NCBI GenBank assembly: GCA_900542825.1
Contig: UQOY01000001.1
Location: forward strand, 232,536-296,535
From: an uncultured Collinsella sp.
GTDB taxonomy: Bacteria > Actinomycetota > Coriobacteriia > Coriobacteriales > Coriobacteriaceae
Length of the DNA: 64,000 nucleotides
Reading direction: 5' to 3'
Positions 18,158-37,930 of this stretch are shown piece by piece (the stretch's first letter is position 1; every line of letters begins with the position of its first letter). The translations under genes and the position numbers were made by a program. The notes under the pieces are model-generated. The model ran no database searches. It worked only from the letters and a program-made list of their open reading frames with translations, and was not told where the DNA came from.

Positions 18158-18904
18158 CTACAGGCGGTAGGAGGCTCCGCTGCGGATAATGGACTCGCGT
18201 ACCAGGACGTCCATAGCGTCGAGAGTGATCTCGGGCATCTCGCGATACTTTTGTAGCACCGAGAGCTCGGTGCAGGCCAGGATGACGCGATCGCAGCCGC
18301 TGCGGGCGAACTCCCACATCACTCGGTCAAACTTGTCCATATCGGGCTCGCGTCCGGCCTTCACGTCATCATAAATCAGCGACATTACATCGGCCTGGCG
18401 CTTCTCGCTGGGATAGACGACCTCGACGCCCGCGGCCTCGCACTCGCGCCCATAGACGCCTGCACCCACGGTGCCGTCTGTGCCCATGATGCCGATCTTG
18501 CGCACCGGCTCAGACGGCATGCTCAGGTTAGGATCGAACTCGCACTCCCCCATCACCGCGCCCGCCAGGGCATAGCGCACCGACTCACGCGGCATGTGGA
18601 TAATCGGCACCTTGGTAAACGACTGAATCTGGTCATAGAAGTAGTGCGATGTGTTGCAGGGAATGGCAATGTGCGCGCAGCCCAGCCTCTCGAGCGCCTG
18701 AGCGCACTCCTTCATGGTCGCCAGCAGCTCGGCATGCTCGCCGGTCTTAATGGCCAGCGTACGGTCGGGCATGGTCGACTTGGAGAGCACCACCATGTCG
18801 ATATGTTCCTGATCGCAGGCAGCAGCCGTATGACGCACGACCTGATCGTAGTAATACGACGTGGCCTCGGCGCCCATGCCGCCGATAACTCCCAGCTTTT
18901 CCAT
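18158..18904 (-). CDS. aspartate/glutamate-racemase-family protein (probable aspartate racemase)
   Basis: MEKLGVIGGMGAEATSYYY...CNTSHYF...ACTELS Asp/Glu/hydantoin racemase motifs. GGAGG RBS before MEKLG; the listed ORF extends to 18988. Confidence 0.8.
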   Translation of the reverse strand: MEKLGVIGGMGAEATSYYYDQVVRHTAAACDQEHIDMVVLSKSTMPDRTLAIKTGEHAELLATMKECAQALERLGCAHIAIPCNTSHYFYDQIQSFTKVPIIHMPRESVRYALAGAVMGECEFDPNLSMPSEPVRKIGIMGTDGTVGAGVYGRECEAAGVEVVYPSEKRQADVMSLIYDDVKAGREPDMDKFDRVMWEFARSGCDRVILACTELSVLQKYREMPEITLDAMDVLVRESIIRSGASYRL

Positions 18905-18988
18905 CGCCGCCTCCTTGGTGACGCCCATGCAATTGCTCGTATCATGCCCGCGCCCGTCCGATGCAAACCGGGCGGACGCCGCGCTCAT

Positions 18989-21731: not shown

Positions 21732-23114
21732 TTACGCGACGGAGGTATCGATGACGCCAGTCGCGTTTGCGATGGCAACAATGATAATCATTGCCAACAA
21801 GAGCACACCCATAGCCTTGAGCCAGAGCTTTGCAAGCTTTTTACCGCGATATCTATCGAGTAGCTCAAACCGCCGGCGAAGGCGGCGTTTATCGAGCATC
21901 ACAAAATGAATGAGTACTACGAGACCGTCGACAAAGATAAAATACTCAATCGCGAGAAACCACATCGGGTAGTTTTGGTTGGCACCCGTGGGATGAAAAA
22001 CGGCAACATGGCTTCCGGCAAAGAAAACAAGTAGCGAAAGATAGACGAATGCGTTCCAAATGCGCCCAACGGTGTCGGGAATGCGGGAGAGTAAACTCGG
22101 GCGCTCAGGCACCAACGGCAATCCACCCTGAGACTGATCCGTGGGGAGCACGGGCGCAGGGCACACAGCTCGCCACTCCGGAGGCTCTTGGAAGGAAGCA
22201 GCATTCGGCGCGGACGACGCATACGATGCGCGCGCAGCGTGCCCTAGTGCCTTCGCGCTTGCAAAGCGCTTGTCCGGATCGAGCGCCATCGCCATGCAAA
22301 TAACATCGGCAAGCGAGGCGGGGACGTCACGTGCCTCGCATTGCTCGCGTATGTTCCGACCTGGCTTGGGATCGGCCCCCGTCAGACAAAAGAACAGCAG
22401 GGCACCGAGCGCATAGACATCGCTGCGCACGCTCGTCTGGCCAAAACCGTACTGCTCGGGTGGCGCATAGGGTCGCGTGCCAAACTTAACAGTATCGGCA
22501 TCGGCTCCCTCACGCCACACGCGAGCGATTCCCAAGTCGATAATCACCAGCGATGAAAATGTCATGCCTGTATCGGGCGTATAGTTCGCGCCCGACACGA
22601 TGATATTCGAGGGCTTTAGGTCGCGATGGATCACCGGAGCGGCCATCTCCCCCGCCGACGCAAAGCCGGCATGGAGCTCCGCAACTGCATCACAAAGGGC
22701 GCCAAACAGCTCACAAGCATAATCGGGCGTCGCACCCAAACGCCCCACCAGGGCCCCGAGCGTTTCGCCTTCGATGTATTCCATGACCACGCAGAGCTCA
22801 TCGCCCACGCGGCGGCAATCGACAATCCGAGGCAAGTGCTCGTAACGTCGCCCGGCATGCTGGGCCGCAAACAGGCGTTCATACGCCCCGCCAATCTGGG
22901 CCGACGCGTCGATGCGCTTGCGAACAAAGGGGCCAAGAGATCCTCCACCGGAGCCCTCAAAGTACACGAGCTCGGTCGTCTCGACGTCGGAGTGCTTGAG
23001 CACACGGTCTACGCGATAACTGTCATCACGCTCAAGTGACGCCAGGTGTCCGGCGAGCGCAGCGGTCAGCTCATCATCGGAATATGTTGGGCTCTGAGTA
23101 TCCATAGCGTCCAT
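21732..23114 (-). CDS. serine/threonine protein kinase with C-terminal TM segments
   Basis: HRDLKPSNI catalytic loop, DLG, APE motifs. C-terminal hydrophobic helices. Confidence 0.85.
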   Translation of the reverse strand: MDAMDTQSPTYSDDELTAALAGHLASLERDDSYRVDRVLKHSDVETTELVYFEGSGGGSLGPFVRKRIDASAQIGGAYERLFAAQHAGRRYEHLPRIVDCRRVGDELCVVMEYIEGETLGALVGRLGATPDYACELFGALCDAVAELHAGFASAGEMAAPVIHRDLKPSNIIVSGANYTPDTGMTFSSLVIIDLGIARVWREGADADTVKFGTRPYAPPEQYGFGQTSVRSDVYALGALLFFCLTGADPKPGRNIREQCEARDVPASLADVICMAMALDPDKRFASAKALGHAARASYASSAPNAASFQEPPEWRAVCPAPVLPTDQSQGGLPLVPERPSLLSRIPDTVGRIWNAFVYLSLLVFFAGSHVAVFHPTGANQNYPMWFLAIEYFIFVDGLVVLIHFVMLDKRRLRRRFELLDRYRGKKLAKLWLKAMGVLLLAMIIIVAIANATGVIDTSVA

Positions 23115-24114: not shown

Positions 24115-24421
24115 TATGCATCCTTCCTACGATCCGGCTACCGCGCCGGCACACAGCACATCGTAGGAGGCAGCAAGCTCAAATTCATTAGCTGGCAGCT
24201 AATGCAGCAACACAGCTTGCCATCCGACGCTCATTGAGTCCTTTTTTCCTTCACCGAACTCATGCCTTTGTTGTTGACTATTAAACATTTAGACGTAAAC
24301 TGCTTTGTTACCTTGTCAACATCTGAAAGGAACATCATTGGGAAAAGACGTACTGGTGCAGCAACTCGTCGACTCATTCGACAGCTGGCCCGCCAAAAAT
24401 TCCGGTTGCGGATCGTCCCGC

Positions 24422-26659
24422 ATGACACAAGAGCTCTATCCTTTTGACAAGCTCTTCTCTCCCATCAAAATTAACAAGCTCACCGTCAAAAACCGCATTG
24501 TCATGGCACCGATGGGCAATATCGACATGTGCGAGGAAACTGGCCGTCCCAGTGACATGATGCTGCAGTACTTTTTCGCCCGCGCCAAAGGCGGCTGCGG
24601 CCTCATCACAACAGGACTCGTGCCGGTAAGCCACGGCATCGATACCACGGTCACCGAGCTGGACAAGCTCACCTATTTCCCGCGCATCGATCGAAGCCGA
24701 ACCGTTATGGCAGGCTGGCGCGACCTTGCCCAAGGTGTCCATGCCTTCGGATCGCGCATTTTTGTCCAGCTTACGGCTGGACTCGGCCGCGTGGGCAACC
24801 CGCAATGCCTCATCACGCAAAAGAAGTTTCCGGTCTCGGCGAGTTTCTTGCCTAACTACTACATCTCCGCCATTCCATGCATGCGCCTCTCGGACCAAAA
24901 GCTGCGCCGTATCGTAAACAATATCGGCCAAGCGGCGGCCGATGCCCATGCCATGGGCATCGATGGCGTCTATTTGCACGGGCACGAGGGTTATCTTATC
25001 GAGCAGCTCGGAAACCCCGCCTTTAACCATCGCAAGCTCGGACGTTATGCCGATTGGCGTCAATTTGGCCTCGATATGGTCAAAGAAATCCGTCGCCGCG
25101 TTGGACCCGACTACCCCATCATGTACCGCATCGACCTTTCGCTTGCACTCGAGGAAACCTATGACGAGCAGGTCATGAATTCGACCTATCTGGGACGCAT
25201 GCGTGGCGGTCGCACAGTCGAACAGACCCTGTGTTATATGGAAGAGCTCGTGGCGGCGGGAGTAGACATCTTTGACGTCGACCTTGGTTGCTATGATAAC
25301 TGGTGGATGCCCCACCCGCCTGCGAGCATGCCCGCAGGCTGCTTCGTTCCCGTGGCGCGCGCCGTTCGAGAGCGCTTTGCCGCCGACAATATCCGCTCCA
25401 ATGCCGGCCTTCCCGTACCCGTTGTCGCGGTGGGTAAGTTGGGCTACCCCGACATTGCCGAACGCGCTCTTCGCAATGGCGACGCCGATATGATCATGCT
25501 CGGACGCCCGCTGCTTGCGGATCCCGAATGGCCCAACAAGGCGTACGCCGGTCGCGTGGCAGATATTCGCCCCTGCATCGGATGCCAGGAAGGATGCCTT
25601 AACGAGTTTGTCGAAGGGGGCCATCCGCAGTGTGCCGTCAATCCACGCTGCAGCTTTGAATACCTCATGCCCCAGACACCCGCTCCCGCCAAAGAGCCCA
25701 AACGTATAGCGGTGATAGGAGCCGGGCCCGCCGGGATGGTCTGTGCGCTAATCGCCGCGCGTCGTGGCCACGACGTAAAGCTCATCGACGCCGAAGATGA
25801 ACTTGGAGGAAAACTCCTCTCCGCCAGCGCCGCCCGGATCAAGTTCGACCTCGATAACTACCGATCATATCTTGTTCGACAGGTGCGCGAGCAGGCAGAA
25901 AAACCCAACGGGAACCTGACACTCGAACTTGGACGGGCAGCACGCGCCGAAGATCTTGCAAAAGCAGGCTTCGACGCAATCGTGTGCGCGACAGGCACTT
26001 CCAATGCGATACCGCCCATCCCCGGCCTTACGGAGCTTGCAGCATCGGGCCATGCTGTGCAGGCAACGCAGCTACTGCGCCAACCCGCGCTGCTTGGCAA
26101 CGCCAAAACCGTCACCATCATTGGCGGAGGGGCCGTGGGCTGCGAGGTTGCCCAATGGCTCACCGTCGAACATGGCATACCACAGGTCAGCGTAATTGAA
26201 ATGCTGCCTCACATGATGCAGGGCGCCTGCACGGCAAATCGTGGCCACCTACTCCATGCGCTCAGGGGACGCAATGTGCGGCTCCTCAATATGACACGCG
26301 TCGAGCGCGCGGAAGTCGGCGGCAAACGCGAGTCTGGAGCCCCATCGAGGTGTGCGCGTCTCCACTTGAGTCGCAACTGCCACAAAAACGTTCCCGACCC
26401 CTACGTCTCGTGGTCACCGGTCTTGCCCGAGAACGTCGAAAACCCGCTTGCACCCAAAATCGGCAACGACTGGAAGTCACTCGAGATAACCTGCGACCTG
26501 GTAATCATCGCCTGCGGCGGACACCCCGACGACGCGCTGTTCTACAAACTGCAACAGACGCACGCCGCAGACGAGCTGCATAACATCGGCGATGGGTTTG
26601 CACCCGGCCGTGTGCTCGAAGCGGTCCGTGCGGCATACCGACTCGGCACCAATATCTAA
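24422..26659 (+). CDS. NADH:flavin oxidoreductase of the 2,4-dienoyl-CoA reductase / BaiH / TMADH family (OYE TIM barrel + 4Fe-4S + FAD/NAD(P) domain)
   Basis: OYE-like N-terminus (KLTVKNRIVMAPMG...HGHEGYL), Cys cluster CIGCQEGCLNEF...C, and a C-terminal Rossmann domain (IAVIGAGPAGM). Confidence 0.8.
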   Translation: MTQELYPFDKLFSPIKINKLTVKNRIVMAPMGNIDMCEETGRPSDMMLQYFFARAKGGCGLITTGLVPVSHGIDTTVTELDKLTYFPRIDRSRTVMAGWRDLAQGVHAFGSRIFVQLTAGLGRVGNPQCLITQKKFPVSASFLPNYYISAIPCMRLSDQKLRRIVNNIGQAAADAHAMGIDGVYLHGHEGYLIEQLGNPAFNHRKLGRYADWRQFGLDMVKEIRRRVGPDYPIMYRIDLSLALEETYDEQVMNSTYLGRMRGGRTVEQTLCYMEELVAAGVDIFDVDLGCYDNWWMPHPPASMPAGCFVPVARAVRERFAADNIRSNAGLPVPVVAVGKLGYPDIAERALRNGDADMIMLGRPLLADPEWPNKAYAGRVADIRPCIGCQEGCLNEFVEGGHPQCAVNPRCSFEYLMPQTPAPAKEPKRIAVIGAGPAGMVCALIAARRGHDVKLIDAEDELGGKLLSASAARIKFDLDNYRSYLVRQVREQAEKPNGNLTLELGRAARAEDLAKAGFDAIVCATGTSNAIPPIPGLTELAASGHAVQATQLLRQPALLGNAKTVTIIGGGAVGCEVAQWLTVEHGIPQVSVIEMLPHMMQGACTANRGHLLHALRGRNVRLLNMTRVERAEVGGKRESGAPSRCARLHLSRNCHKNVPDPYVSWSPVLPENVENPLAPKIGNDWKSLEITCDLVIIACGGHPDDALFYKLQQTHAADELHNIGDGFAPGRVLEAVRAAYRLGTNI

Positions 26660-26680
26660 CACGAAAGGATGGGCTCACAG

Positions 26681-27958
26681 ATGAACCTGACCTCCCAACA
26701 ACAAGCCCTGCTCGACGGCGCCAAGGGCCCCGCCATGGCCAAAGTGGTCAAGACCCTCGTTATGTACGGCGAATGTTTTGGCGCCGAGCGTATGGTTCCC
26801 GTGACCGGCGCAAACGGTCATCTTGTCACCAGTTTCGGCCTCTCCATGCTCGGTCCAGTCTATGACCTTATGGATGAGCTGCTGAAAGACGGCGCCCCGT
26901 CCGGTCAGTCATTCTCGGTCGACCCGAGGCCCCTCGACCCCGCCGTCCCGGCCAACCCGCTGCAAAAGTTACTGTTCAAGATTATGTATTCCAAACAAGA
27001 CGATTATGAGGCACAGCTGCGCAGCATGGGCCTATTGGACAGCGATGCTTTCACCTGCACCTGCTACCAGCCCGAGGTTGGCAATCGACCTCGACGTGGC
27101 GACATCCTAAGCTGGGCAGAAAGCAGCGCCGTGGTCTTTGCCAACTCCGTGTTGGGCGCTCGCTGCAATCGCAACTCCGGCATCATCGAGATGTTCGGCT
27201 CAATTGCCGGCTTTGTCCCGGAATTCGGCCTGCTCACCGATGAGGGCCGCAAGGCGACCTGGATCATCGAAGTGGACTGTAAGCGCAAGCCCGAAGCGCA
27301 AGTGCTTGGCAGCGCCATTGGCATGAAGGTGATGGAAGACGTCCCTTACATTAAAGGCCTCGACCGCTGGCTTGGCCGCGAACTCACGCCCGGCACGCAG
27401 GACTACCTTAAGGACATGGGCGCCGCCAGCGCATCGAACGGCGCTGTCGGGCTCTACCACGTGGACGGCATCACACCCGAGGCCGTCGAACAAGGCGAAC
27501 AACTCATAGCACCAGACGCCCAAATCTATCGCATTGACGACGCCGAGCTGGAACGCATCCGCTCGAGCTACCCCATTATGTGGAAGAACCCGGGCGCGCG
27601 CCCCAAGCTGGCCTTCATCGGCTGCCCCCACCTCTCGTCTGCACAACTCGCCCATTGGGCAGACGCCATCTGCGATGGGCTGAGCGCCTCCGGCAACTGC
27701 CGCGTGCAAGTACCCACCGTACTGACCGCCGCCCCATCCGTGGCAGACGCCTTCCGCAAGACTGCGGCATACAGACGCCTCTCGACTACCGGCGCCGTCG
27801 TCTCGAGCATCTGCCCGCTCATGTACACCAACAACCCGCTGTGCGGCAGCATGCCCATCATCACCAACTCCAACAAGTTGCGTACGTACTCGGCATCGCG
27901 CTACTACACCGACGACGAGGTGCTCGCCTACGTCACCACCGGAAAACCAATCGAATAG
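26681..27958 (+). CDS. aconitase X catalytic (large) subunit, AcnX type II (cis-3-hydroxy-L-proline dehydratase-like)
   Basis: ~425 aa DUF521/AcnX-like sequence, immediately followed by a separate small subunit. Start at MNLTSQ chosen over the ATG abutting the RBS. Confidence 0.7.
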   Translation: MNLTSQQQALLDGAKGPAMAKVVKTLVMYGECFGAERMVPVTGANGHLVTSFGLSMLGPVYDLMDELLKDGAPSGQSFSVDPRPLDPAVPANPLQKLLFKIMYSKQDDYEAQLRSMGLLDSDAFTCTCYQPEVGNRPRRGDILSWAESSAVVFANSVLGARCNRNSGIIEMFGSIAGFVPEFGLLTDEGRKATWIIEVDCKRKPEAQVLGSAIGMKVMEDVPYIKGLDRWLGRELTPGTQDYLKDMGAASASNGAVGLYHVDGITPEAVEQGEQLIAPDAQIYRIDDAELERIRSSYPIMWKNPGARPKLAFIGCPHLSSAQLAHWADAICDGLSASGNCRVQVPTVLTAAPSVADAFRKTAAYRRLSTTGAVVSSICPLMYTNNPLCGSMPIITNSNKLRTYSASRYYTDDEVLAYVTTGKPIE

Positions 27959-27972
27959 GAAGGCGACTCCTC

Positions 27973-28416
27973 ATGGAAAAAATCTTTCACGGCCGCGTCG
28001 TTGTCCCCGGAACTGCCCACGCCAAGGCACTTGTCTCTCACGGAGGGCTCAACACACTCGCATCGTTTCAGAAGGCACTGATGTTTGGCGACAAAAAGGC
28101 CACGTGTTCCGACCAAAACAATCCCGACTTGTACGGCAAACCTTTGGCGGGATGTGCCTTGTGCCTTCCGCAGACTATCGGATCCACCACAGGCGGCATG
28201 GTGCTCTTCTGCGCCACCAAAATGGGGCGCCAACCCGCATGCCTGCTGTTTTCCAAACCCATTGACAGCCTTGCCGCCGCTGGCGCGATCCTCTCGGGTG
28301 TATGGACCGACACACCCATGCCCACCATTGACAACCTGGGCGATGAGTTTCTCGATGCCGTGTCGACGGGAGACGCCATCACCGTGGCCGAAGACGGCAC
28401 GGTCATCGTCGGCTAA
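27973..28416 (+). CDS. aconitase X swivel (small) subunit
   Basis: 147 aa (MEKIFHGRVVVPGTAHAKALVSHGGLN...), AGGAAGG RBS. Encoded inside a longer listed ORF 27580..28416. Confidence 0.65.
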   Translation: MEKIFHGRVVVPGTAHAKALVSHGGLNTLASFQKALMFGDKKATCSDQNNPDLYGKPLAGCALCLPQTIGSTTGGMVLFCATKMGRQPACLLFSKPIDSLAAAGAILSGVWTDTPMPTIDNLGDEFLDAVSTGDAITVAEDGTVIVG

Positions 28417-28526
28417 GGCTATCCGACCCGCCGCCCGCAGATGAACAACGTGTTTCGCCGTTTCCCACGCGCGGTGCGGGCGATAATCTTGACGTATTCG
28501 ATATACAACACGAAAGGAGTCCCACC

Positions 28527-29948
28527 ATGGGAGCATCGGTATCGGTCGCACAGGGCGCGCCTCTTGATGCAGGCACCTACAAGGCAGACGAGGCGGCCGT
28601 CGAGCGCTTTTGCGAATTGCTGCGCATCCCCACCGTTTCGCGTGAGAACATCGCCGAGCGCGACGATGAGCCCTTCAGCCAGTGGATCCCCACGCTTCAG
28701 CGACTTTATCCGCATTTCTTTAACATCGCCGAGATCACACGCATCGACGACTTTGGTATGCTCCTGCGTTGGCCTGGCGCCGATTCCGCCTTGGACCCCA
28801 TCGTCATGATGGCGCATCAGGACGTCGTGCCCGTCGAGGGCCAAGACTGGAAGCATGATCCCTTTGGAGCCGAGATCATCGACGGCGAAATCTGGGCCCG
28901 CGGTTCACTCGACACCAAGTGTATCGTCTCTGCCTTTCTCGAGGCCGCCGAGTACCTAATCAATCAGGGCTTCGTTCCCCCGCGCGATGTCTGGTTCTTC
29001 TCGAGCGATGGCGAGGAAATCGCCGCGCCTACTGCAACCCATGCAGTTCAGTGGCTTCGCGAGCACAACATCCATCCCTACATGGTGCTCGATGAGGGTG
29101 GCGCCGTGGCAACCGACGCCCCGCTCGGCGTCACCGAACCCGTTGCCATGGTAGGCGTGTCCGAGAAGGGTCACGTCGACCTTACCGTCACGGCGCGCGC
29201 CGACGGCGGCCATGCCTCTACGCCTGCGGCAAACGATGCCTGCCGTCTTCTCTGCCGTGTATGCGAGACTATCTCGACCAACCCCGGCAAGCCGCAGCTC
29301 ACGCCCGCCGTCGAAGCCACACTGACCGAACTGGGCGCCCGTAGCAGCGCGACGTATCAGGCAATCTTTGGCAACCTGTGGCTCACGCGCCCCGCGGTTA
29401 CCAAGATCATGGCCGCCAGCCCCGAGACCTCGGCCATGCTGCGCACAACCTATGCGCTCACGCAGCTCGAAGGCTCCAACGCGCACAATGTGCTGCCACC
29501 AGTTGCTCGCGCTAACTTCAACGTGCGCATCGCTCCGTTCGAGACCATCGCCGATGCCGTTGAGCGCGCCCGCAAGCTCGCCGCCCAGCAGTGCCGCGCC
29601 TCGGGCGTAAGCCCCGACCATGTCACCGTCGAAATCAACGAGGCGATCCCCTACACCGAGCCCGCGCCCATCTCGCCTTACGAAGACGATGCCGCCTTCA
29701 ACTACATCCATCGCTGCGTGTCGGGTGTCTATCCCGAGGCCGGCTTTGCCCCCTACGTGCAGAACTCCTGCACCGACTCGCGCGAGTTCAACGAGATCTG
29801 CGATCGCGTCTACCGCTTCTGCGGCTTTATCTACTCGGGCGAGGCGCGCAAGCTCATCCATGCCGCCAACGAACGCATCGGCGTCGACGTCTACAAGCGC
29901 GGTATCGAATTCTATGTGGCGTTTCTCGCCAACCTTGGACAACTGTAG
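28527..29948 (+). CDS. M20-family metallopeptidase (dipeptidase/carboxypeptidase-like)
   Basis: HQDVVP, SLDTKC and EEIAAP motifs typical of M20 family; AAAGGAG RBS. Confidence 0.8.
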   Translation: MGASVSVAQGAPLDAGTYKADEAAVERFCELLRIPTVSRENIAERDDEPFSQWIPTLQRLYPHFFNIAEITRIDDFGMLLRWPGADSALDPIVMMAHQDVVPVEGQDWKHDPFGAEIIDGEIWARGSLDTKCIVSAFLEAAEYLINQGFVPPRDVWFFSSDGEEIAAPTATHAVQWLREHNIHPYMVLDEGGAVATDAPLGVTEPVAMVGVSEKGHVDLTVTARADGGHASTPAANDACRLLCRVCETISTNPGKPQLTPAVEATLTELGARSSATYQAIFGNLWLTRPAVTKIMAASPETSAMLRTTYALTQLEGSNAHNVLPPVARANFNVRIAPFETIADAVERARKLAAQQCRASGVSPDHVTVEINEAIPYTEPAPISPYEDDAAFNYIHRCVSGVYPEAGFAPYVQNSCTDSREFNEICDRVYRFCGFIYSGEARKLIHAANERIGVDVYKRGIEFYVAFLANLGQL

Positions 29949-30001
29949 GACGGGAGGGCCGATAGCGCCCCTCCCCGCTTTTACCGACCAGGAGAACCAG
30001 C

Positions 30002-31321
30002 ATGACCCAACCGAATCTTAAGCGGGCGGCCCGGCTCGATACCAAGGCCGTCGCCCTCGCCTCTCTACCCTTTATGGGCATGATCAGCTTTTGGCAGGTC
30101 TACGACGGCATCGTTCCCAAGATGCTCACGGGAACCTTTGGCCTATCCAACTCGCTCACCGGCGCGATCATGGCCATCGATAATGTCTTTGGTCTGTTCC
30201 TGCTTCCGCTCTTTGGCATCCTCTCGGACCGTTGCACAAGCAAACTCGGGCGCCGAACGCCCTTTATCTTGGGCGGCTCCGCGGTGGCGATGCTCTCCGT
30301 CCCGCTCATCGCGATTGCCAACAACATGGGCAGCCTACCTCTGCTCATTGGCGCGATTATCCTCACGCTTTTGGCAATATGCGCCTACCGCACCATGACG
30401 GTTGCCATCGTGGCCGATATTACGCCTCGCCCACTGCGAACCAAGGCGGACTCGATCGAAAAGATCGTCGGCTATGCGGGAACGGGCCTTATGCTCGTCG
30501 CCATCTCGGTCATGGTTCCCAAGGCCGACAAGCCCGATTATCTTCCGCTCTTTTTCTTGCAGGCCGCCTTTATCCTCGTGTCGGCCGTTGTCTACGGCAT
30601 CTTTGTCCGTGAGCCCGCCCTCGTCGAAAAGATGCGCGAGAAATCGCTGTCCATGGGCATCGACGAGGATCAGATTGACAAAGATGACTCCCCCGAGGCC
30701 GGCGGTAAAGATCGCGTTGCAGACACCGGCTTACGCCGCTCCATCATCATGCTGCTCGCCGCAACGTTTTTCTACTACATGAGCTATAACGCCATGACCA
30801 CCAATATCAGCCGCTATGCCGATATGTTCTACGGCATGGAGGGCGGTTCCTATGCCATCATCAATATCGTGACGATTGCTGGCGCGCTGCTAAGCTACGT
30901 ACCCTTGGCAAATCTTTCGCTCAAAATCGGCCGTAAAAAGGTCGCCCTGGGCACCGCCGTCATCATGGTTTTATGCCCCGCGCTTCTTTGGCTGGCGCCC
31001 GGTTTCTCGCCCGTGCTGTACGGCGTCTTTTTGTTGATGGGCGTTGCGCTGGGCGGCGTAGACCTGTGCGTGTACACGATGATTCTGGAGTGCTGCAGCT
31101 CCCAAAGCGTGGGCCGCTACTCCGGTTACTACTACACCGTGAGCATGGCGGCTCAGGTGGCGACACCGATTCTCTCCGGCATCGTTATGGACGTGGCACC
31201 GTCGATGCTCTTCGCCTACATCACGGCAATGGGCATGATTATGGCCGCGAGCATTGCCGCCGCCAAGCATGGCGACGCCATCTTGATCGACGAGGTCGCT
31301 CGCCGCGAGGCAGCCGAGTAG
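30002..31321 (+). CDS. MFS transporter (GPH/sugar-peptide type)
   Basis: 12-TM MFS topology; AGGAGA RBS. Confidence 0.75.
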   Translation: MTQPNLKRAARLDTKAVALASLPFMGMISFWQVYDGIVPKMLTGTFGLSNSLTGAIMAIDNVFGLFLLPLFGILSDRCTSKLGRRTPFILGGSAVAMLSVPLIAIANNMGSLPLLIGAIILTLLAICAYRTMTVAIVADITPRPLRTKADSIEKIVGYAGTGLMLVAISVMVPKADKPDYLPLFFLQAAFILVSAVVYGIFVREPALVEKMREKSLSMGIDEDQIDKDDSPEAGGKDRVADTGLRRSIIMLLAATFFYYMSYNAMTTNISRYADMFYGMEGGSYAIINIVTIAGALLSYVPLANLSLKIGRKKVALGTAVIMVLCPALLWLAPGFSPVLYGVFLLMGVALGGVDLCVYTMILECCSSQSVGRYSGYYYTVSMAAQVATPILSGIVMDVAPSMLFAYITAMGMIMAASIAAAKHGDAILIDEVARREAAE

Positions 31322-31411
31322 GAGCGCGTGCCAATATTGAACAACGGAGCCGGATGGGGGGGCATTTCCCATCCGGCTCCGTTTTTTCATCCTCAAGAGG
31401 CTCGTCGAAGC

Positions 31412-31735
31412 CTACCCCACCGTGACGGATTCCCCGGTAAAGGCACTCATCATCAACAGGACAAAGAACACCAGGTAGCTAACACTCAGCAGGTACGCAA
31501 TAATCAGGAAGAAGACCCATCCGACATTGGTCTTGCCGTCGGCACGACGTTGCTCACGATAACGGCACAGCCAAATCGTCACGCCAATGGCCACAATCAA
31601 CAGCACAAGTGCCACTGCCGCCAGTCCAGCAAGCGCAAACATCACGCCAATGCTCACAGCAATAACCGGGAGCAGTAGTAAGCCGCACCCGCACCCACCA
31701 GGACTATACACGGCAGACCGGCGGCGTCGTTTCAT
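31412..31735 (-). CDS. hypothetical small membrane protein
   Basis: 107 aa, three hydrophobic helices; abuts the M20D gene stop. Confidence 0.35.
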   Translation of the reverse strand: MKRRRRSAVYSPGGCGCGLLLLPVIAVSIGVMFALAGLAAVALVLLIVAIGVTIWLCRYREQRRADGKTNVGWVFFLIIAYLLSVSYLVFFVLLMMSAFTGESVTVG

Positions 31736-31737
31736 CG

Positions 31738-32925
31738 TTACTCCAAGCCAAGCAATCGTTTGTAGACATCGAGGCCTTTGAGCAGGATTTCCTCGTCAAA
31801 GAGCATAGTATCCGTATGCAGGGCACTCGTGGCATAGGCGGGGCAGCCCTCGGTGTCGCTCGGATTATCCCGACTGACAGGAACGCCCGTGCCCAGCAAG
31901 AAGAACACACCCGGCAGATGGCGCTGATAGAAGGCGAAGTCTTCGGCAATCAGCAGCGGCTCGTCCACGAGCTGCAACTCGGGCAGAGCAGGCGCGATTC
32001 GGGCAAACAACTCGGGGTCGTTGTCGACCGGCGGATAGCCCTCGGCAAAGTCGAGATCGTACGTGCAGCCCGTTGCAGCGCATGCCTCGTCAAGCACGCG
32101 GCGCACGCCCTCACGCGCACGGTCGAACATGTCGTCCGTAAACACACGCAGGCTGCCGGCAACATGGGCCTCCCCCGCCACCGCGTTGCAGACGGTACCG
32201 GCCTGCAGTAGGCCGAACTTACCAATGCAGGGTTCGTCGGCGCCCAACTCGTCCATCAATTCACGCTCGGCAACCAAAAACTTCGCTGCCGCCAACGCGG
32301 CATCGTGCGATTCGTTTACGGGAACGCCGTAGGTCTTGGCGATATGGATGCTTGTCCCGTGAATGTGCACGTGCGTCTCACTCGAGCGCGCTAGCAATGG
32401 ACCGGAGCAGCTCGCCAACGTGTTCGCAGGCAGGTCGGGCCATACGTGGAACCCGAAGATACGGTCCACCCCGTAGCGCTCAAACACCCCGCTCTCACAA
32501 ACTGTCTTGGCGCCACCGGTCGTCTCCTCGGCAGGCTGGAACACAAAGAGCACGTTGCGCTTGATGGCACCCGGCTGCTCACGAATCGTGCGATCGACAA
32601 AGGTTGCCGCCGCAAGTGCCATGGCCATGTGTCCATCGTGTCCGCAAGCGTGCATCTTGCCGGGATGGGTTGAGGCAAAGGCCGCACCCGTCGCCTCCGC
32701 GATGGGTAGCGCGTCCATATCGGCGCGAATCGCCGTGGCATGCACGGCACCAACGCCAGCATCGAAGAAAGCGCAGACACAGCTGGGGCACGGATGGGTC
32801 ACCTCGCAGGTGAGCGGCGCCAACACGCCCTCGATATAAGCGATGGTTTGAGGAAGATCGAAATCGAGCTCCGGAATGCGATGCAGGTCGCGACGATAGC
32901 GACGAAGTTCTTGGAGCTCGGTCAT
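31738..32925 (-). CDS. M20D-family amidohydrolase (N-acyl-amino-acid / hippurate hydrolase-like)
   Basis: MHACGHDGH and PAEE motifs. Start at MTELQELRRY, 6 nt after AAAGGA; the listed ORF extends further upstream. Confidence 0.85.
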   Translation of the reverse strand: MTELQELRRYRRDLHRIPELDFDLPQTIAYIEGVLAPLTCEVTHPCPSCVCAFFDAGVGAVHATAIRADMDALPIAEATGAAFASTHPGKMHACGHDGHMAMALAAATFVDRTIREQPGAIKRNVLFVFQPAEETTGGAKTVCESGVFERYGVDRIFGFHVWPDLPANTLASCSGPLLARSSETHVHIHGTSIHIAKTYGVPVNESHDAALAAAKFLVAERELMDELGADEPCIGKFGLLQAGTVCNAVAGEAHVAGSLRVFTDDMFDRAREGVRRVLDEACAATGCTYDLDFAEGYPPVDNDPELFARIAPALPELQLVDEPLLIAEDFAFYQRHLPGVFFLLGTGVPVSRDNPSDTEGCPAYATSALHTDTMLFDEEILLKGLDVYKRLLGLE

Positions 32926-33076
32926 AAAGGATCCTTTCATGGGGCATTTCCATTCACACAATATTGTGATGCAAAAATGTGATGCCCTTGTTTCTAGCAT
33001 ATCCCTGCATTTTTTAAACGTTATATACGAATACTCTTGTTTGGTAAAGTGCAACGTGGTAGGGTCGTTACCACTT

Positions 33077-33235
33077 GATAGAGGCGCGGGCACGAAGAAC
33101 CGCGGGCGAGCCGGCAGGCTTTGACCCCGTGGGGAGGCGAAACCCGCCGAACTGGGCTTTTCGGGCACGAACAACCTGGTGGGCCTGCGGGAAACACCCG
33201 CAGGACTGTCTGCAGCAATGCGGGAGCGCTATCCG
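33077..33235 (+). promoter_or_regulatory. lysine riboswitch (L-box)
   Basis: 5' GAUAGAGGCGCG, internal GGGGAGGCGAAACCCGCCGAA, and 3' GGACUGUC...GAGCGCUAUCC match the conserved L-box P1 and core elements. Sits directly upstream of lysA-dapA-dapB-dapH. Confidence 0.8.
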
Positions 33236-33304
33236 GACATTGGGTCCACGCTATGCGGATTCGATGCGCAGATGGCGCCGTCTGGATAGCGAGGTTTACG
33301 GGAC

Positions 33305-35614
33305 ATGGCATTGACCCCCAACGAGGCATATGCGGCCAAGCAGCCGTTTGTGGACAAGGAGACGCTCGAGCATATCGTCGAGCAGTTCCCCACGCCGTTT
33401 CATCTATATGACGAGGCGGGCATCCGCCGCAACATGCAAGAGGTGCGCGATGCCTTTGCATGGAACCCGGGCTTTAAGGAATACTTTGCCGTCAAGGCCA
33501 ATCCCAACCCGGCGCTCGTCTCCATTCTCAACGAATACGGCTGCGGCTGCGATTGCTCGAGCTATACCGAGCTCATGATCGCCCGCTCGCTGGGTATCAC
33601 GGGACACGACATCATGTTCTCGTCCAACGACACGCCAGCTGCCGACTTTGAGCTCGCCGACAAGCTGGGTGCCATCGTCAACTTTGACGACATCAGCCAC
33701 ATCGAGTTCTTTGAGCGCGTCGCGGGGCCCATCCCCAAGACGGTCAGCTGCCGCTTTAATCCGGGCGGCCTGTTCCAGCTCTCCAACGGCATCATGGATA
33801 ACCCCGGCGACTCCAAGTACGGCATGACCACCGAGCAACTCTTCGAGGCGTTCCGCATGCTCAAGGCCAAGGGCGCCGAGGACTTTGGCATCCACGCATT
33901 CCTTGCCAGCAACACCGTCACCAACGACTACTACCCCAAGCTCGCGCGCATCCTCTTTGAGCTTGCCGTGCGCCTGGAGCGCGAGACCGGCGCACATGTC
34001 GCCTTTATCAATCTGTCCGGCGGCGTCGGTATCCCCTACCTGCCCGAGCAGCAGGCCAACGACATTCACGCCATCGGCGAGGGAGTGCACGCGGCATACG
34101 ACGAGATCCTGGTTCCCGCCGACATGGGCGATGTGGCCATCTGCACCGAGATGGGCCGCTTTATGATGGGCCCCTACGGCTGCCTGGTCACCAAGGCCAT
34201 CCACGAGAAGCAGATCTACAAGGACTATATCGGTGTCGACGCAAGCGCGGTCGACCTGATTCGCCCTGCCATGTATGGCGCCTACCACCACATTACGGTG
34301 ATGGGCCAGCCGGGTGGCGCCGACAAGACCACAGCACCCGTTGCGGATACCTACGACATCACGGGCAACCTATGCGAGAACAACGACAAGTTCGCCATCG
34401 ATCGCGAACTGCCGCATATCGACATGGGCGACCTGCTTGTGATTCACGATACCGGCGCGCATGGCTACTCCATGGGCTACAACTACAATGGACGGCTGCG
34501 CTCCGCCGAGGTCCTGCTGCGTCCCGATGGCTCGGCCGAACTCATCCGCCGCGCCGAGCGCCCGGGCGATTATTTTGCCACGCTCGATGTGCTGCCGTGC
34601 GGCCGAGAGCTGCTGGCCAAGTCGCGCGCCGAAAGTGCCCGCCGTCGCGCCCAAGACGAGCGGCTGGCAGTCGCCGCCCAATGGAACAAACGCATCCAGA
34701 TCGCGGACGCGAAGGAGAAGAACATGGACATCCGCAATCTTGAAGGCTCGATCGTCGCCCTTGTTACGCCGTTTAAAAAGGACGGCAGCGTCGACTTTGA
34801 CGCGCTCGAGCGCCTTATCGATTTCCACCTGCAAAACGGCACCGACGCCATCCTCACCCTGGGCACCACCGGCGAGAGCGCCACGATGACCGATGACGAG
34901 GACAACTCCGTTGTCGCCGCCGTGGTCAAGCAAGTTGCAGGCCGCGTCCCCGTCATTGCCGGCTCGGGCTCCAACTCCACGCAAACCATGCTCACCAAGT
35001 CGCTCACCTACCAGGGCTTGGGAGCCGACGGTCTGCTGCTCATTACCCCCTACTACAACAAGGCCAATGAAGAGGGCATCTATCAGCACTTTAAGACCGT
35101 CGCCGATGCCGTGGACATCCCCTGCATCCTGTACAACATCCCCGGCCGCTGCGGCTGCGGCATCAGCGAGCGCAACGTAGAACGCTTGGCTGCGCACCCC
35201 AACATCATGGGTATTAAGGAAGCCTCGGGCAACGTCGCCTACGCGGCCAAGATCGCCCACCTGCTGTCCGACGACTTCCGTATGTACTCGGGCGAAGACG
35301 CACTTACCGTACCGCTCATGAGCCTGGGCGCTTCGGGCACCATCAGCGTGTGGGCCGATGTTCAGCCGCAGCTCGTGCACGACATGTGTCGAGCCTATCT
35401 GGACGGTGACGTGGCACGCGCCCGCGATATCCAGATTGCCGGCCAGCCGCTCATCAATGCACTCTTTAGCGAGGTCAACCCCATCCCCGTCAAGGAGGCG
35501 CTCGCCCAGATGGGTATGATCGAAGCAAATTACCGCATGCCGCTGTGCCCCATGGCAGACGTCACGCGCGCTACACTTACCGATGCTCTGAAGGGAGCTG
35601 GTCTGCTTGATTAA
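33305..35614 (+). CDS. lysA-dapA: in-frame fusion: diaminopimelate decarboxylase (LysA) + 4-hydroxy-tetrahydrodipicolinate synthase (DapA)
   Basis: 769-aa ORF. Residues 1-~455 are a PLP-dependent ornithine/DAP decarboxylase fold; after a ~40-aa basic linker comes a complete DapA (MDIRNLEGSIVALVTPF...). No stop codon found on reading codons 34562-34740. Confidence 0.8.
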   Translation: MALTPNEAYAAKQPFVDKETLEHIVEQFPTPFHLYDEAGIRRNMQEVRDAFAWNPGFKEYFAVKANPNPALVSILNEYGCGCDCSSYTELMIARSLGITGHDIMFSSNDTPAADFELADKLGAIVNFDDISHIEFFERVAGPIPKTVSCRFNPGGLFQLSNGIMDNPGDSKYGMTTEQLFEAFRMLKAKGAEDFGIHAFLASNTVTNDYYPKLARILFELAVRLERETGAHVAFINLSGGVGIPYLPEQQANDIHAIGEGVHAAYDEILVPADMGDVAICTEMGRFMMGPYGCLVTKAIHEKQIYKDYIGVDASAVDLIRPAMYGAYHHITVMGQPGGADKTTAPVADTYDITGNLCENNDKFAIDRELPHIDMGDLLVIHDTGAHGYSMGYNYNGRLRSAEVLLRPDGSAELIRRAERPGDYFATLDVLPCGRELLAKSRAESARRRAQDERLAVAAQWNKRIQIADAKEKNMDIRNLEGSIVALVTPFKKDGSVDFDALERLIDFHLQNGTDAILTLGTTGESATMTDDEDNSVVAAVVKQVAGRVPVIAGSGSNSTQTMLTKSLTYQGLGADGLLLITPYYNKANEEGIYQHFKTVADAVDIPCILYNIPGRCGCGISERNVERLAAHPNIMGIKEASGNVAYAAKIAHLLSDDFRMYSGEDALTVPLMSLGASGTISVWADVQPQLVHDMCRAYLDGDVARARDIQIAGQPLINALFSEVNPIPVKEALAQMGMIEANYRMPLCPMADVTRATLTDALKGAGLLD
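34724..35614 (+). CDS. dapA: DapA portion; possible independent internal translation start
   Basis: ATG at 34724 is preceded by GAAGGAG 7 nt upstream, embedded in the fusion linker coding sequence. The 296-aa product is a full-length DapA. Confidence 0.45.
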   Translation: MDIRNLEGSIVALVTPFKKDGSVDFDALERLIDFHLQNGTDAILTLGTTGESATMTDDEDNSVVAAVVKQVAGRVPVIAGSGSNSTQTMLTKSLTYQGLGADGLLLITPYYNKANEEGIYQHFKTVADAVDIPCILYNIPGRCGCGISERNVERLAAHPNIMGIKEASGNVAYAAKIAHLLSDDFRMYSGEDALTVPLMSLGASGTISVWADVQPQLVHDMCRAYLDGDVARARDIQIAGQPLINALFSEVNPIPVKEALAQMGMIEANYRMPLCPMADVTRATLTDALKGAGLLD

Positions 35615-36347
35615 GACCGTCATTATGGGAACGGGCCGCATGGGCTCGCTCATCCGCACCACCGCCGAGGGCGTTGTCGACGCCGCCGGACAACCTGTTT
35701 TCAATATCGTGGCCCAGATCGGCTTTGACTTGTCCGAGCTCGAGAACGCCCCGGCAGCCGACGTCATCATCGACTTCTCGAACGTCGTGACCTTCGATGC
35801 CGTCGTCGCCTATGTCGAGCGCACGGGCGCAGCGTTAGTCTCGGGAACCACGGGCTACACACCAGAGCAGATGGATCGCCTGCGCGAGCTGGGTCAGAAC
35901 GCCCGCGTCATGCACTCCGGCAATTATTCCATCGGTATCGCAGCCCTGCGTCATCTGGTAGCACAGGCAACACGCGAGCTGCCCGGCTTTGACTGCGAAA
36001 TCGTCGAGACGCACCATAACCAAAAGGTCGACGCCCCCAGCGGCACTGCCAAGTTGTTGCTCGACGCCGTCGTCGAAGCCGAGCCCGAGGCAGGTTACCA
36101 CCCCGTCTATGGCCGCGAGGGCATGTGCGGTGCACGCGACCCCAAGGAGATCGGCATGCACTCGCTGCGCGGTGGCACTGTCGCCGGCGTGCACGAAGTG
36201 AGTTTCTTTGGCCAGGACGAGGAGGTCACGCTCACGCACCGCGCCACGAGCCGTCAGATCTTTGTCAACGGTGCCCTGGCAGCCGCGCAGAAGCTCGTCA
36301 CCCACGAGCCTGGCTTCTATACGTTCGACCAGATCATGTTTGCCTAA
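35607..36347 (+). CDS. dapB: 4-hydroxy-tetrahydrodipicolinate reductase
   Basis: 246 aa, DapB motifs (EIVETHHNQKVDAPSGTA). Overlaps the dapA stop by 8 nt (ATGATTAA). Confidence 0.9.
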   Translation: MIKTVIMGTGRMGSLIRTTAEGVVDAAGQPVFNIVAQIGFDLSELENAPAADVIIDFSNVVTFDAVVAYVERTGAALVSGTTGYTPEQMDRLRELGQNARVMHSGNYSIGIAALRHLVAQATRELPGFDCEIVETHHNQKVDAPSGTAKLLLDAVVEAEPEAGYHPVYGREGMCGARDPKEIGMHSLRGGTVAGVHEVSFFGQDEEVTLTHRATSRQIFVNGALAAAQKLVTHEPGFYTFDQIMFA

Positions 36348-36386: not shown

Positions 36387-37106
36387 ATGAGCAATGCAGC
36401 CGAAATGGATGCACAGGAGATCATCAACTACATCGCCACCGCGCCCAAGAAAACGCCCGTCAAACTGTACGTGCGCGAGAAGCCGGGCATGAAGGTCCAG
36501 TGGGGCAATGCACACGTCTACGGCGGTCGTCGTGGCAAGACCGTCTTTGGTGACTGGGATGAGCTCAAGGCAATCCTCGACGCCAACGCCGGCTCCATCG
36601 ACTACTACGACGTAGAGAACGACTGCCGCAACTCCGCCGTGCCCATGCTCGACCTCAAGGGCATCAACGCCCGCATCGAGCCGGGCGCTATCATCCGCGA
36701 CCGCGTCGAGATTGGCGACCGTGCCGTCATCATGATGGGCGCCATCATCAACATCGGCTCCGTCATTGGCGAGGGTTCCATGATCGATATGGGCGCCGTG
36801 CTGGGCGGCCGCGCCACCGTGGGTAAGAACTGCCACATCGGCGCCGGCACCGTGCTGGCAGGCGTCGTGGAGCCCGCCAGCGCCACGCCCGTCATCATCG
36901 AGGACGATGTCATGATCGGCGCCAATGCCGTGGTCCTGGAGGGCGTGCACGTGGGCAAGGGTGCTGTCGTTGCCGCCGGCGCCGTGTGCGTCGAGGACGT
37001 CCCCGCCGGTGCCGTCGTGGCCGGTGTCCCCGCCCGCGTCATCAAGATGCGCGACGAGAAGACCGACAGCAAGACTGGCCTCGAAGAGGGCTTACGCCAG
37101 CTTTAA
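36387..37106 (+). CDS. dapH: 2,3,4,5-tetrahydropyridine-2,6-dicarboxylate N-acetyltransferase
   Basis: Left-handed beta-helix hexapeptide repeats with DapH-like N-terminus. Confidence 0.85.
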
Positions 37107-37224: not shown

Positions 37225-37569
37225 TCATCTCAGGGTTCCGTCGTATTCAACCATGGCGGGTCGCTTTGACAGGCGCCCCGCGGCCGTCTTATAGACCTCG
37301 GAACGGTCGCGCCGCCCTATTGCCACGATCTCGGCAATCTCAACCGTTCCGTCCTCCCGGATTCGAAAAACCATTCGGAGTCCTGCATTCCGCCATTTGA
37401 TCTTTTTGCAGCCGGCAAGCTCGCCGTGAAGCGGCGTTCCAATTTCATCAGCGCGCGTCTTTAATTTCGCGACTGCAATACGGACGAGTCTTCGCTGAGA
37501 TCCATCTAGTTTTTGATATTCCTTCTCGACGTCTCGATTCAAAAAGCCGACGACAAAATGCCCACTCAT
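37225..37569 (-). CDS. type II toxin, RelE/ParE family
   Basis: RelE-like core (GCKKIKWRNAGLRMVFRIREDGTVEIAEIVAIGRR). Overlaps the antitoxin stop (ATGA). Confidence 0.7.
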   Translation of the reverse strand: MSGHFVVGFLNRDVEKEYQKLDGSQRRLVRIAVAKLKTRADEIGTPLHGELAGCKKIKWRNAGLRMVFRIREDGTVEIAEIVAIGRRDRSEVYKTAAGRLSKRPAMVEYDGTLR

Positions 37570-37916
37570 TCGAAAAGATCCTCATCGGGGATCGCGTCCG
37601 GATCCATCGATTCAAACTCCGCGAGCTCCTCGGTAGTTAGGGCGTCCTCAAACGGAACAAATTCATGCGGACCATGCTTGACTCGATCCGCAGCGATGCG
37701 ATTTATCTCAAGTTCGTGCAGATACTGCAGCGCGCCGTACATTTCCTCATAGGCGGCATAGTCGATAATCACGGTATCGATATCGTTATGATCGGCAATG
37801 AACTGTGGTGCGCGTTTTGCGCGTTTACGAATGGCAGATAAAGACTTGCTTGCTTCTGTAGCCGAAACAACCTGGTCTTTTGTAAACACCGGTTTTTCCA
37901 GAACAAGTGGGGACAT
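37566..37916 (-). CDS. type II antitoxin, Phd/YefM-like
   Basis: VSATEASKSLSAIRKRAK... Phd-like N-terminus and acidic C-terminus. GGAGG RBS before MSPLV. Confidence 0.65.
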   Translation of the reverse strand: MSPLVLEKPVFTKDQVVSATEASKSLSAIRKRAKRAPQFIADHNDIDTVIIDYAAYEEMYGALQYLHELEINRIAADRVKHGPHEFVPFEDALTTEELAEFESMDPDAIPDEDLFE

Positions 37917-37930
37917 TTTGACCTCCAAAA

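Follow-up and report, generated by a model that had tools for sequence, protein, structure and literature searches.

The 64,000-nucleotide (nt) stretch of uncultured Collinsella sp. DNA analysed in this study (contig UQOY01000001.1, positions 232,536 to 296,535; hereafter the window) carries a gene for a flavin- and iron-sulfur-dependent reductase immediately upstream of the genes for both subunits of an aconitase X (AcnX) enzyme. This dehydratase-reductase pairing, comprising the reductase and both AcnX subunits, is a recurrent unit. With some reserve, its general scheme is put forward as probably a two-step, coenzyme A (CoA)-independent one, in which a 3-hydroxy acid is first dehydrated to a 2-enoate and the product is then reduced. 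The proteins encoded here are of known kinds, namely a Type-II AcnX dehydratase, an Old Yellow Enzyme (OYE)/FeS/FAD reductase, an M20 metallohydrolase and an MFS transporter, and what is new is the conserved module and the AcnX subclass, neither of which was found described in the literature searched. Four bacterial AcnX subclasses were left without a function by Watanabe et al. (2021), and for one of these the present locus supplies a conserved partner enzyme and hence a testable scheme. Once the substrate is identified, thousands of genes would gain an annotation, and a new microbial electron sink, or the transformation of a host or diet metabolite, could come to light.

The recurrence of the pairing was counted from both sides. 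Among 41 metagenomic loci holding an orthologue of the reductase at less than 90% identity, with room downstream, the gene for the AcnX large subunit lies directly downstream in 33. On the AcnX side, 59 non-Collinsella species loci had enough upstream sequence, nine of them with the orthologous reductase 7–96 nt upstream of AcnX and a further 24 with a reductase match of below 45% identity alongside it, giving 33 of 59 with an OYE/FeS/FAD reductase in total. All but one of these 24 are a different reductase, 26–30% identical to that of the window and of the same OYE/FeS/FAD architecture by Pfam, whilst the match in the remaining locus (L088, 41%), truncated where the contig ends, is possibly an orthologue. 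A more distant AcnX (P0129, 47% identity), a paralogue of the window protein, has a partner from yet another reductase subfamily, with 34% identity to the window reductase, so three reductase lineages have been brought, or kept, together with AcnX. The order reductase, AcnX large subunit, AcnX small subunit is kept at 55–84% identity in Parolsenella, a metagenome-assembled genome (MAG) named Atopobium, Muricomes, Flexilinea (Chloroflexota), Peptococcaceae and Treponema. The flanking genes at such loci are unrelated, examples being WhiA/RapZ genes with a phosphotransferase system operon (L002), an ABC transporter with a TetR regulator (Flexilinea) and molybdopterin genes (Peptococcaceae). The adjacency of reductase and AcnX is far beyond chance. 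A functional coupling of the two had been proposed from the letters of the window, together with a check of their adjacency in other genomes, and the conservation now observed in distant phyla supports it strongly.

Relatives of the AcnX large subunit occur in at least 599 stretches of a one-genome-per-species collection, which was searched with a 98%-identical cluster representative as the query. The best 80 of these at least 599 stretches span 64–99% identity and come from Collinsella, the Atopobium-named MAG, many Clostridia (Acutalibacteraceae, Oscillospiraceae, Lachnospiraceae, Ruthenibacterium and Muricomes), Solobacterium, Treponema and Flexilinea, with Parolsenella found among the reductase homologues and Peptococcaceae among the AcnX protein matches. 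Loci that are 97–99% identical to the window belong to Collinsella aerofaciens isolates and Collinsella MAGs, and the window itself is assigned to C. aerofaciens. The family is unusually well conserved, its members being still 64–70% identical across Actinomycetota, Bacillota, Spirochaetota and Chloroflexota, and most of its hosts live in the human or animal gut.

The reductase gene (24338–26659, + strand) has all three modules of the FadH/2-enoate reductase/BaiCD/BilR superfamily, an OYE-type FMN domain, a [4Fe-4S] site and an FAD/NAD(P)H domain, as evidenced through Pfam (Oxidored_FMN, 2.5e-40; Pyr_redox_2, 3.4e-26) and through motifs. The latter comprise the cluster motif CxxCxxxCx11C at residues 385–404 (25574–25633), GxGxxG motifs at residues 433–438 (25718–25735) and 568–573 (26123–26140), and a HEGY motif at 24983–24994. 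Translation probably starts at the TTG codon at 24338, giving 773 amino acids (aa), rather than at the ATG at 24422, because a 99%-identical cluster (P0390) is 773 aa long and AAAGGA lies ~7 nt upstream of the TTG. The best PDB matches are E. coli 2,4-dienoyl-CoA reductase (FadH; 1PS9, 7.5e-56) and 2-naphthoyl-CoA reductase (6QKG, 3.7e-46). The three-module architecture is common to these two enzymes, the clostridial 2-enoate reductases, BaiCD/BaiH, BilR and the window reductase, but the latter reaches only about one third of the NCBIfam equivalog cut-offs, failing all of them (BaiCD, 283.5 bits against 825; BilR, 279.9 against 750; mycofactocin OYE, 263.1 against 793), and is set apart from this family by its link to AcnX. 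The two other AcnX-linked reductase subfamilies likewise score about one third of such cut-offs, and close homologues are named in their source records merely NAD(P)/FAD-dependent oxidoreductase. The reductase forms a subfamily of its own, almost always with AcnX downstream.

The AcnX large subunit (429 aa; 26669–27958, + strand) matches PF04412 with 295 bits (9.8e-88; cut-off 31.5), and the small, or swivel, subunit (147 aa; 27973–28416, + strand) matches PF01989 with 45.5 bits (6.7e-12; cut-off 27), the tandem genes lying 14 nt apart. The large subunit was aligned with 7cnr and 7cnp, the small subunit with 7cnr_B, 2hi6 and 7cnp, and a family alignment (A1) was also used. References were the Thermococcus AcnX (7CNR), diverse AcnX representatives and the Type-I protein of locus L176, which is 92.5% identical to the Agrobacterium enzyme (AtAcnX) over a 265-aa query fragment and whose numbering was confirmed at each of the 16 landmark positions. 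The predicted [4Fe-4S] ligands Cys130, Cys319 and Cys382 align with Cys110, Cys283 and Cys342 of the Thermococcus kodakarensis (Tk) enzyme, and Glu151, Ser152, Lys403, Tyr407 and, in the small subunit (S), Ser71(S) correspond to Tk Glu129, Ser130, Lys361, Tyr365 and Ser62(S). Glu151-Ser152-Ser153 repeats the Glu-Ser-Ser of Tk, where the At enzyme has Glu-Ser-Asn. The putative catalytic Ser71 lies within a GSTTGG motif, and the intact catalytic residues argue for a dehydratase role. Long stretches are invariant across members in alignment A1, where H51 to G57 of the loop G50-HLVTSFGLS-59 are invariant and G50 and L58 are present in at least 90%; a CSDQNNPD-type motif of the small subunit is found throughout the aligned members, as CGDQNNKD in L042.

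Type-II AcnX is divided into six subclasses, with IIa being cis-3-hydroxy-L-proline (C3LHyp) dehydratase, IIb the archaeal phosphomevalonate (mevalonate-5-phosphate, MVA5P) dehydratase, and IIc–f uncharacterised groups without both sets of landmarks (Watanabe et al., 2021; PMC8184944). The AcnX of the window is placed by its residues in Type II, in neither IIa nor IIb and hence in the uncharacterised IIc–f group, structurally nearer to IIb, because the defining features of both characterised subclasses were tested and failed.

The sequence-only reading of the locus had instead proposed that AcnX dehydrates cis-3-hydroxy-L-proline to delta1-pyrroline-2-carboxylate (Pyr2C), that the flavoenzyme reduces this to proline, and that two M20 peptidases and the MFS transporter supply hydroxyproline (Hyp) peptides from collagen. 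Type-I and IIa enzymes do perform this chemistry (PMC5144071; PMC8184944), and share with the window protein the superfamily fold, the elimination of the C2 proton and C3 hydroxyl, and the Ser, Glu, Lys and Tyr residues. Also kept, as Thr73(S), is At Thr72, which hydrogen-bonds the ring nitrogen. Trimethylamine and histamine dehydrogenases, OYE/FeS relatives of the reductase among its PDB matches, handle C–N/C=N chemistry, and peptidases or amino-acid transporters lie near AcnX in several lineages (M20 here, and M19, a Na:Ala symporter and OPT elsewhere). It is, however, too broad to take bacterial two-subunit AcnX enzymes in general for cis-3-Hyp dehydratases, as this holds for IIa alone among the six subclasses (PMC8184944). 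In IIa, all Type-I substrate residues (Trp35, Thr72, Asp203 and Ile206, At numbering) are fully conserved and only two Cys are present, whilst the Type-I Fe-S ligands are Cys273, Cys508 and Cys510 and the AtAcnX D203A mutant is inactive (PMC8184944). In the window, Asp203 is replaced by Val53 (invariant in the family), Trp35 by Leu29(S), Ile206 by Phe56/Leu58, Cys71 by Thr72(S) and Asn294 by Ser153, and the ligand set differs too, with Cys at the positions of At Cys273, Ser449 (Cys319) and Cys508 and a Leu at Cys510 (Leu384), which is the three-Cys pattern of Type IIb.

Scores and gene context agree with the residues. The C3LHyp dehydratase equivalog of NCBIfam (NF051439), a model built for the fused Type-I form, gives 141.7 bits for the large and 27.2 for the small subunit against a cut-off of 700, and the large subunit is closer to the Thermococcus AcnX (E 5.6e-43) than to the Agrobacterium one (E ~1e-19). 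No hydroxyproline genes (proline-racemase-like, Pyr2C reductase or Hyp epimerase) were found within ~12 kb on each side or in the related loci examined, whereas the Type-I reference locus L176 has a 357-aa ORF directly downstream that is presumably proline-racemase-like, as judged by eye. Collagen carries the trans-3 and trans-4 isomers of hydroxyproline, and the rationale for a collagen-derived supply is weak. The cis-3 isomer is not known from collagen, being known only from telomycin (PMC8184944). Furthermore, the M20 and MFS genes are lineage-specific and the second M20-type gene goes with lysine biosynthesis, as described below. Activity on cis-3-hydroxyproline is therefore considered very unlikely, and the original hydroxyproline account is mostly wrong.

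Another rival reading makes the AcnX a phosphomevalonate (or mevalonate-like) dehydratase, a bacterial relative of the enzyme in the archaeal modified mevalonate pathway. The T. kodakarensis AcnX (TK1248/TK1249; PDB 7CNR/7CNS), which with that of Aeropyrum pernix represents Type IIb, is the best solved-structure match of the large subunit (5.6e-43), and the window protein resembles this type in its two subunits, three-Cys site, small-subunit catalytic Ser, Glu-Ser-Ser triad, Lys and Tyr binding the carboxylate and C3 hydroxyl, and Leu at the Trp35/Leu27 position. The window and Tk proteins are only ~30% identical, however, and the MVA5P landmarks are missing, with the phosphate-binding Asn replaced (Tk Asn53 by Ser59, Tk Asn79 by Asp85) and the AQVAGVSYKN loop (with G48-V49-S50) of Tk and the IIb-like representatives giving way to GHLVTSFGLS in the window family. 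Type IIb sits in an archaeal mevalonate context with a UbiD-type decarboxylase, whereas the window family is bacterial and coupled to a reductase; mevalonate genes (UbiD/UbiX-type decarboxylase, isopentenyl-phosphate kinase) were not found in the window or the related loci examined, and an ene-reductase would have no role in the mevalonate pathway. The fallback offered by the sequence-only reading, some other hydroxy acid, lies closer to the evidence than hydroxyproline, but its example of a mevalonate-5-phosphate-like compound does not fare so well, with Asn53 and Asn79 both replaced, and a phosphomevalonate dehydratase is scarcely credible here.

Enzymes of the 2-enoate reductase type (EC 1.3.1.31) have the OYE/FeS/FAD architecture and reduce free enoates with NADH. 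In both AcnX enzymes characterised so far, a Ser of the small subunit takes the C2 proton whilst the Fe-S cluster, a Glu and a Lys remove the C3 hydroxyl, and both reactions give carboxylate-conjugated, 2-enoate-type products from 3-hydroxy acids (PMC8184944). Given this chemistry and the three lineages of OYE/FeS/FAD reductase found beside AcnX, a two-step reductive dehydroxylation is therefore the most economical explanation of the module. We infer that Ser71 of the small subunit would abstract the C2 proton of a free 3-hydroxy-carboxylate, and that the cluster iron, with Glu151 and Lys403, would remove the C3 hydroxyl to leave an alpha,beta-unsaturated carboxylate (2-enoate). The NAD(P)H-dependent flavoenzyme would then saturate the C=C double bond, or the C=N of a tautomer, to yield the saturated acid. 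Overall, this would amount to a CoA-independent reductive dehydroxylation and a possible electron sink in anaerobes. In Collinsella, the MFS transporter may import, and the M20 enzyme hydrolyse, an amide or peptide conjugate carrying the substrate.

Several observations weigh against this scheme. There is no reductase within 8 kb of AcnX in 26 of the 59 species loci, where the dehydratase can stand alone or have its partner elsewhere, and six orthologues of the reductase (52–60% identity) are without AcnX. Three of these six lie beside a PocR sensor kinase, two of which (L149 and L153) are also beside a TctABC-sized gene set, Pfam having been run on L149 only. Besides the reductase, the neighbours of AcnX are heterogeneous (DUF5696, MatE, Na:Ala symporter, MFS_2, OPT, M19 dipeptidase, GDH and glycosidases). 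The reductase, moreover, has a Glu in its HEGY motif where classical OYEs have the His/Asn that binds the activating carbonyl; HEGY at this substrate-binding position is common to all three AcnX-linked subfamilies, and E. coli dienoyl-CoA reductase presumably has SEGY there, so specificity for a free carboxylate or a thioester is not readable from the sequence.

The first two of these points would also suit a non-functional adjacency, in which reductase and AcnX take part in unrelated processes and are mere neighbours. Against this stand the adjacency in at least four phyla with unrelated flanks, its frequency in the reciprocal test (33 of 41), the recruitment of three reductase subfamilies beside AcnX pairs and the short gaps of 7–96 nt, and chance neighbourhood is regarded as highly improbable.

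The module could also run in the opposite direction, the flavoenzyme desaturating an acid and AcnX hydrating the enoate to a 3-hydroxy acid, or AcnX might isomerise 2- and 3-hydroxy acids like classical aconitase. BaiCD is the top NCBIfam model for the reductase, and superfamily relatives act as dehydrogenases in bile-acid metabolism. Reactions of the aconitase superfamily are reversible, but both characterised AcnX enzymes are physiologically dehydratases (PMC8184944), and NAD(P)H-linked reduction of enoates is thermodynamically favoured and commoner in fermentative anaerobes. These alternatives are considered unlikely.

Some loci of the reductase without AcnX deserve description in their own right. 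L149 (338–11179), L153 and L155 carry orthologues that are 58–59% identical to the window reductase. In L149 the gene lies downstream of genes for a PocR-domain hybrid sensor kinase, an ARMT1-like protein and a flavin-reductase-like protein (Pfam), and is convergent with a gene for an MBL-fold hydrolase and a TctABC transporter operon; ORF sizes in L153 and L155 are the same as far as their contigs extend. Conversion of aconitate to tricarballylate, prompted by TctABC beside some of these reductase-only orthologues, was considered and rejected, as it had no other support.

The only indication of a particular substrate comes from the paralogous module around P0129. In L172 (3584–15320) and L173, this AcnX and its own reductase lie among MttB-family genes, a Dimeth_Pyl (MtbB) gene, sigma-54 activators and a class-III aminotransferase, the MtbB gene being interrupted by an in-frame stop codon, as would be expected of a pyrrolysine-containing protein. 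In a Desulfobacterales MAG (GCA_021737275.1; L177:1–15219) the order is BCCT, corrinoid protein, MttB, reductase, AcnX large subunit, AcnX small subunit, EamA, MttB, MttB and TetR. No CoA-transferase or CoA-ligase genes were found in the L172 and L177 clusters. We know of no common quaternary amine besides L-carnitine that is also a 3-hydroxy acid, and this position among amine genes points, by analogy, to carnitine-like substrates for the paralogue. Dehydration of L-carnitine by AcnX followed by ene-reduction would yield gamma-butyrobetaine, which is reported as an MttB-family substrate (PMC8604678).

Extended to the module as a whole, this would mean that AcnX with an OYE/FeS/FAD reductase constitutes an unrecognised CoA-independent reductive dehydroxylation of amine-bearing 3-hydroxy acids, by which the Desulfobacterales-type paralogue, and possibly the gut family of Collinsella and many Clostridia, convert L-carnitine (or nor-carnitine/gamma-amino-beta-hydroxybutyrate, GABOB, or a related 4-amino/ammonio-3-hydroxybutyrate) via crotonobetaine to gamma-butyrobetaine. 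It would thus be a CoA-independent counterpart of cai in obligate gut anaerobes. Carnitine, as a 3-hydroxy acid with a C2 proton, suits AcnX chemistry, the paralogue and its reductase occur inside MttB/BCCT-type clusters in two unrelated assemblies (L172/L173 and L177), and the window family is, as noted, one of gut organisms. The likeness to enterobacterial caiTABCDE is a functional analogy that concerns the P0129 paralogue only: if carnitine is the substrate, the net path from 3-hydroxy acid through enoate to saturated acid is the same, but Cai uses CoA thioesters, a crotonase-type dehydratase and an acyl-CoA-dehydrogenase-type reductase where the paralogue has an Fe-S AcnX and an OYE/FeS flavoenzyme. 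This evidence is, however, the paralogue's. The large-subunit loop reads GHLVTSFGLS in the window and GHFVIAHAIP in the paralogue, and the small-subunit motif CSDQNNPD and CADHGNPD, respectively, and because these specificity loops differ, extending a carnitine substrate to Collinsella is speculative. None of the 64 window-family loci examined is flanked by BCCT, MttB or corrinoid genes, the transporter in the Collinsella operon is of the MFS type, the amine context is missing around a third paralogue (L178), and no publication linking AcnX to carnitine was found in the literature searched. Conversion of carnitine by the module is, on this evidence, unlikely. If true, the module would account for the abundant initial reaction still missing from gut carnitine-to-trimethylamine metabolism outside cai-bearing Proteobacteria, and the paralogue offers a tangible starting point for work on carnitine-related chemistry, which is of medical interest.

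The Asp at the Tk Asn79 position (Asp85, with Asp90 close by) was considered as a sign of a cationic substrate and rejected, as the same Asp residues are present in the 49%-identical P0125 of an aromatic ring-cleavage cluster, where anionic intermediates are expected; Asp/Asn exchange at this position is frequent across AcnX subfamilies. That P0125 pair (L171:7001–8742) has no reductase and lies in an aerobic-type cluster with two LigB genes, an FAD_binding_3 hydroxylase, a meta-cleavage-type hydrolase, Aldedh, MFS transporters and LysR, where it may hydrate or dehydrate a ring-fission intermediate. A further AcnX pair (P0133, 44% identity; L175:782–8817) follows Ni_insertion and AIRC genes, which we take to be of the LarC and LarB families, with genes for a DUF362/beta-propeller protein and an ArsP-type permease, and suggests another function, linked to a nickel-pincer cofactor enzyme.

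In the window, all six ORFs of the sequence-only reading are present with the domains it had assigned (Pfam and NCBIfam), and its description of tightly spaced, co-oriented + strand genes with gaps of 9 and 14 nt was correct. Of its coordinates, those of the + strand ORFs stood, except that the reductase probably starts at TTG 24338, and the end of the locus at 33174 is a mechanical extension of an ORF. The + strand order is reductase, AcnX large subunit, AcnX small subunit, M20 and MFS, with gaps of 9, 14, 110 and 53 nt. A sigma-70-like site (TTGACT-16-TAAACT, 24274–24301, + strand; nine of 12 consensus matches) lies upstream of the reductase gene, and is only a candidate promoter because such sites are no commoner in the region than in shuffled sequence. 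At the other end, 22 nt past the MFS stop codon, an intrinsic-terminator-like element (31343–31393, + strand) combines a hairpin (31343–31383) of 19-base pair (bp) stem, 11 G-C pairs and 3-nt loop with the T-run TTTTTCATCCT. Its stem is the longest among the hits of a 10.6-kb scan, in which the gaps between the AcnX small subunit, M20 and MFS genes held no terminator-like hits and the remaining + strand hits were 5-bp stems within the MFS coding sequence. The hairpin is predicted to close the five-gene unit, and the tight spacing, promoter-like site and terminator are compatible with co-transcription of the five genes. An Rfam scan upstream of the operon found no riboswitch, the sole match being the lysine riboswitch of the neighbouring dap operon.

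The M20 metallohydrolase (473 aa; 28527–29948, + strand; Pfam Peptidase_M20 and M20_dimer) resembles carboxypeptidases and aminoacylases, with PRK08262 models of NCBIfam scoring ~250 bits against cut-offs of 503–825, and the MFS transporter (439 aa; 30002–31321, + strand; MFS_1 7.4e-27, MFS_2 2e-15) is weakly like the GPH/MFS_2 family (TIGR00792, 53.5 bits against 231). Together they point to uptake of the substrate in conjugated form, as an amide or peptide. They follow AcnX only at loci of ~76–99% reductase identity, taken to be Collinsella or close relatives, and the Parolsenella-type loci (82–84% identity) are without them. Rather than parts of the module, as first proposed, they are lineage-specific add-ons to the core.

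Neighbour clustering over 64 loci of the window family was used to seek a recurrent third partner and, beyond the reductase and TetR regulators, each recurrent cluster was confined to at most eight of the 64. TetR_N was found in L007, and the neighbour cluster that includes this gene (c4) occurs in seven loci; the flanking of the module by TetR in several lineages fits an inducible catabolic unit. The sole non-reductase cluster at position -1 or -2 to reach eight loci is a DUF5696 protein of ~716 aa without an NCBIfam match. It is encoded directly upstream of the AcnX pair in L053 (5718–7865), L054, L068, L071, L083 and L084 and directly upstream of the reductase in L070 and L087, all in genomes named as Acutalibacteraceae, Clostridiaceae or Clostridia MAGs.

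Beyond the terminator, the M20D amidohydrolase gene (31738–32925, - strand; Pfam Peptidase_M20; TIGR01891, 217.6 bits against a cut-off of 153.75), convergent with the five-gene unit, starts at 32925 as first given, and its extension in the 5' direction to 33174 overlaps a riboswitch on the other strand. This is a lysine riboswitch (33071–33239, + strand; Rfam RF00168, 74.4 bits, gathering score 30, E 2.4e-18), directly upstream of a 769-aa ORF (33305–35614) with a LysA-like, pyridoxal phosphate-dependent decarboxylase (residues 39–384) and a DapA/DHDPS domain (479–763), followed on the + strand by DapB (35607–36347) and DapH (36387–37106). The gene for M20D is divergent from the riboswitch and these lysine genes. 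DapH is a tetrahydrodipicolinate N-acetyltransferase, of the acetylase branch of diaminopimelate synthesis, which needs an N-acetyl-diaminopimelate deacetylase, and in Bacillus that enzyme is an M20 amidohydrolase encoded beside dapH. By gene context, M20D is probably this deacetylase (DapL/YkuR type). As context assigns it to lysine biosynthesis, M20D was excluded from the AcnX module, of which it had earlier been made a member. Such a LysA-DapA protein, read here from a single ORF, would join the final enzyme of lysine synthesis to an early one, which is an uncommon arrangement.

Upstream of the operon, on the - strand, lie genes for an Asp/Glu/hydantoin racemase-family protein (18158–18988) and a Ser/Thr protein kinase (21732–23114), neither of which shows conserved linkage to the AcnX module when other genomes are compared. 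On the far side of the lysine genes, a small ORF (37566–37928, - strand) with a weak Phd/YefM antitoxin match lies beside an unannotated 114-aa ORF, and the two may form a toxin-antitoxin pair.

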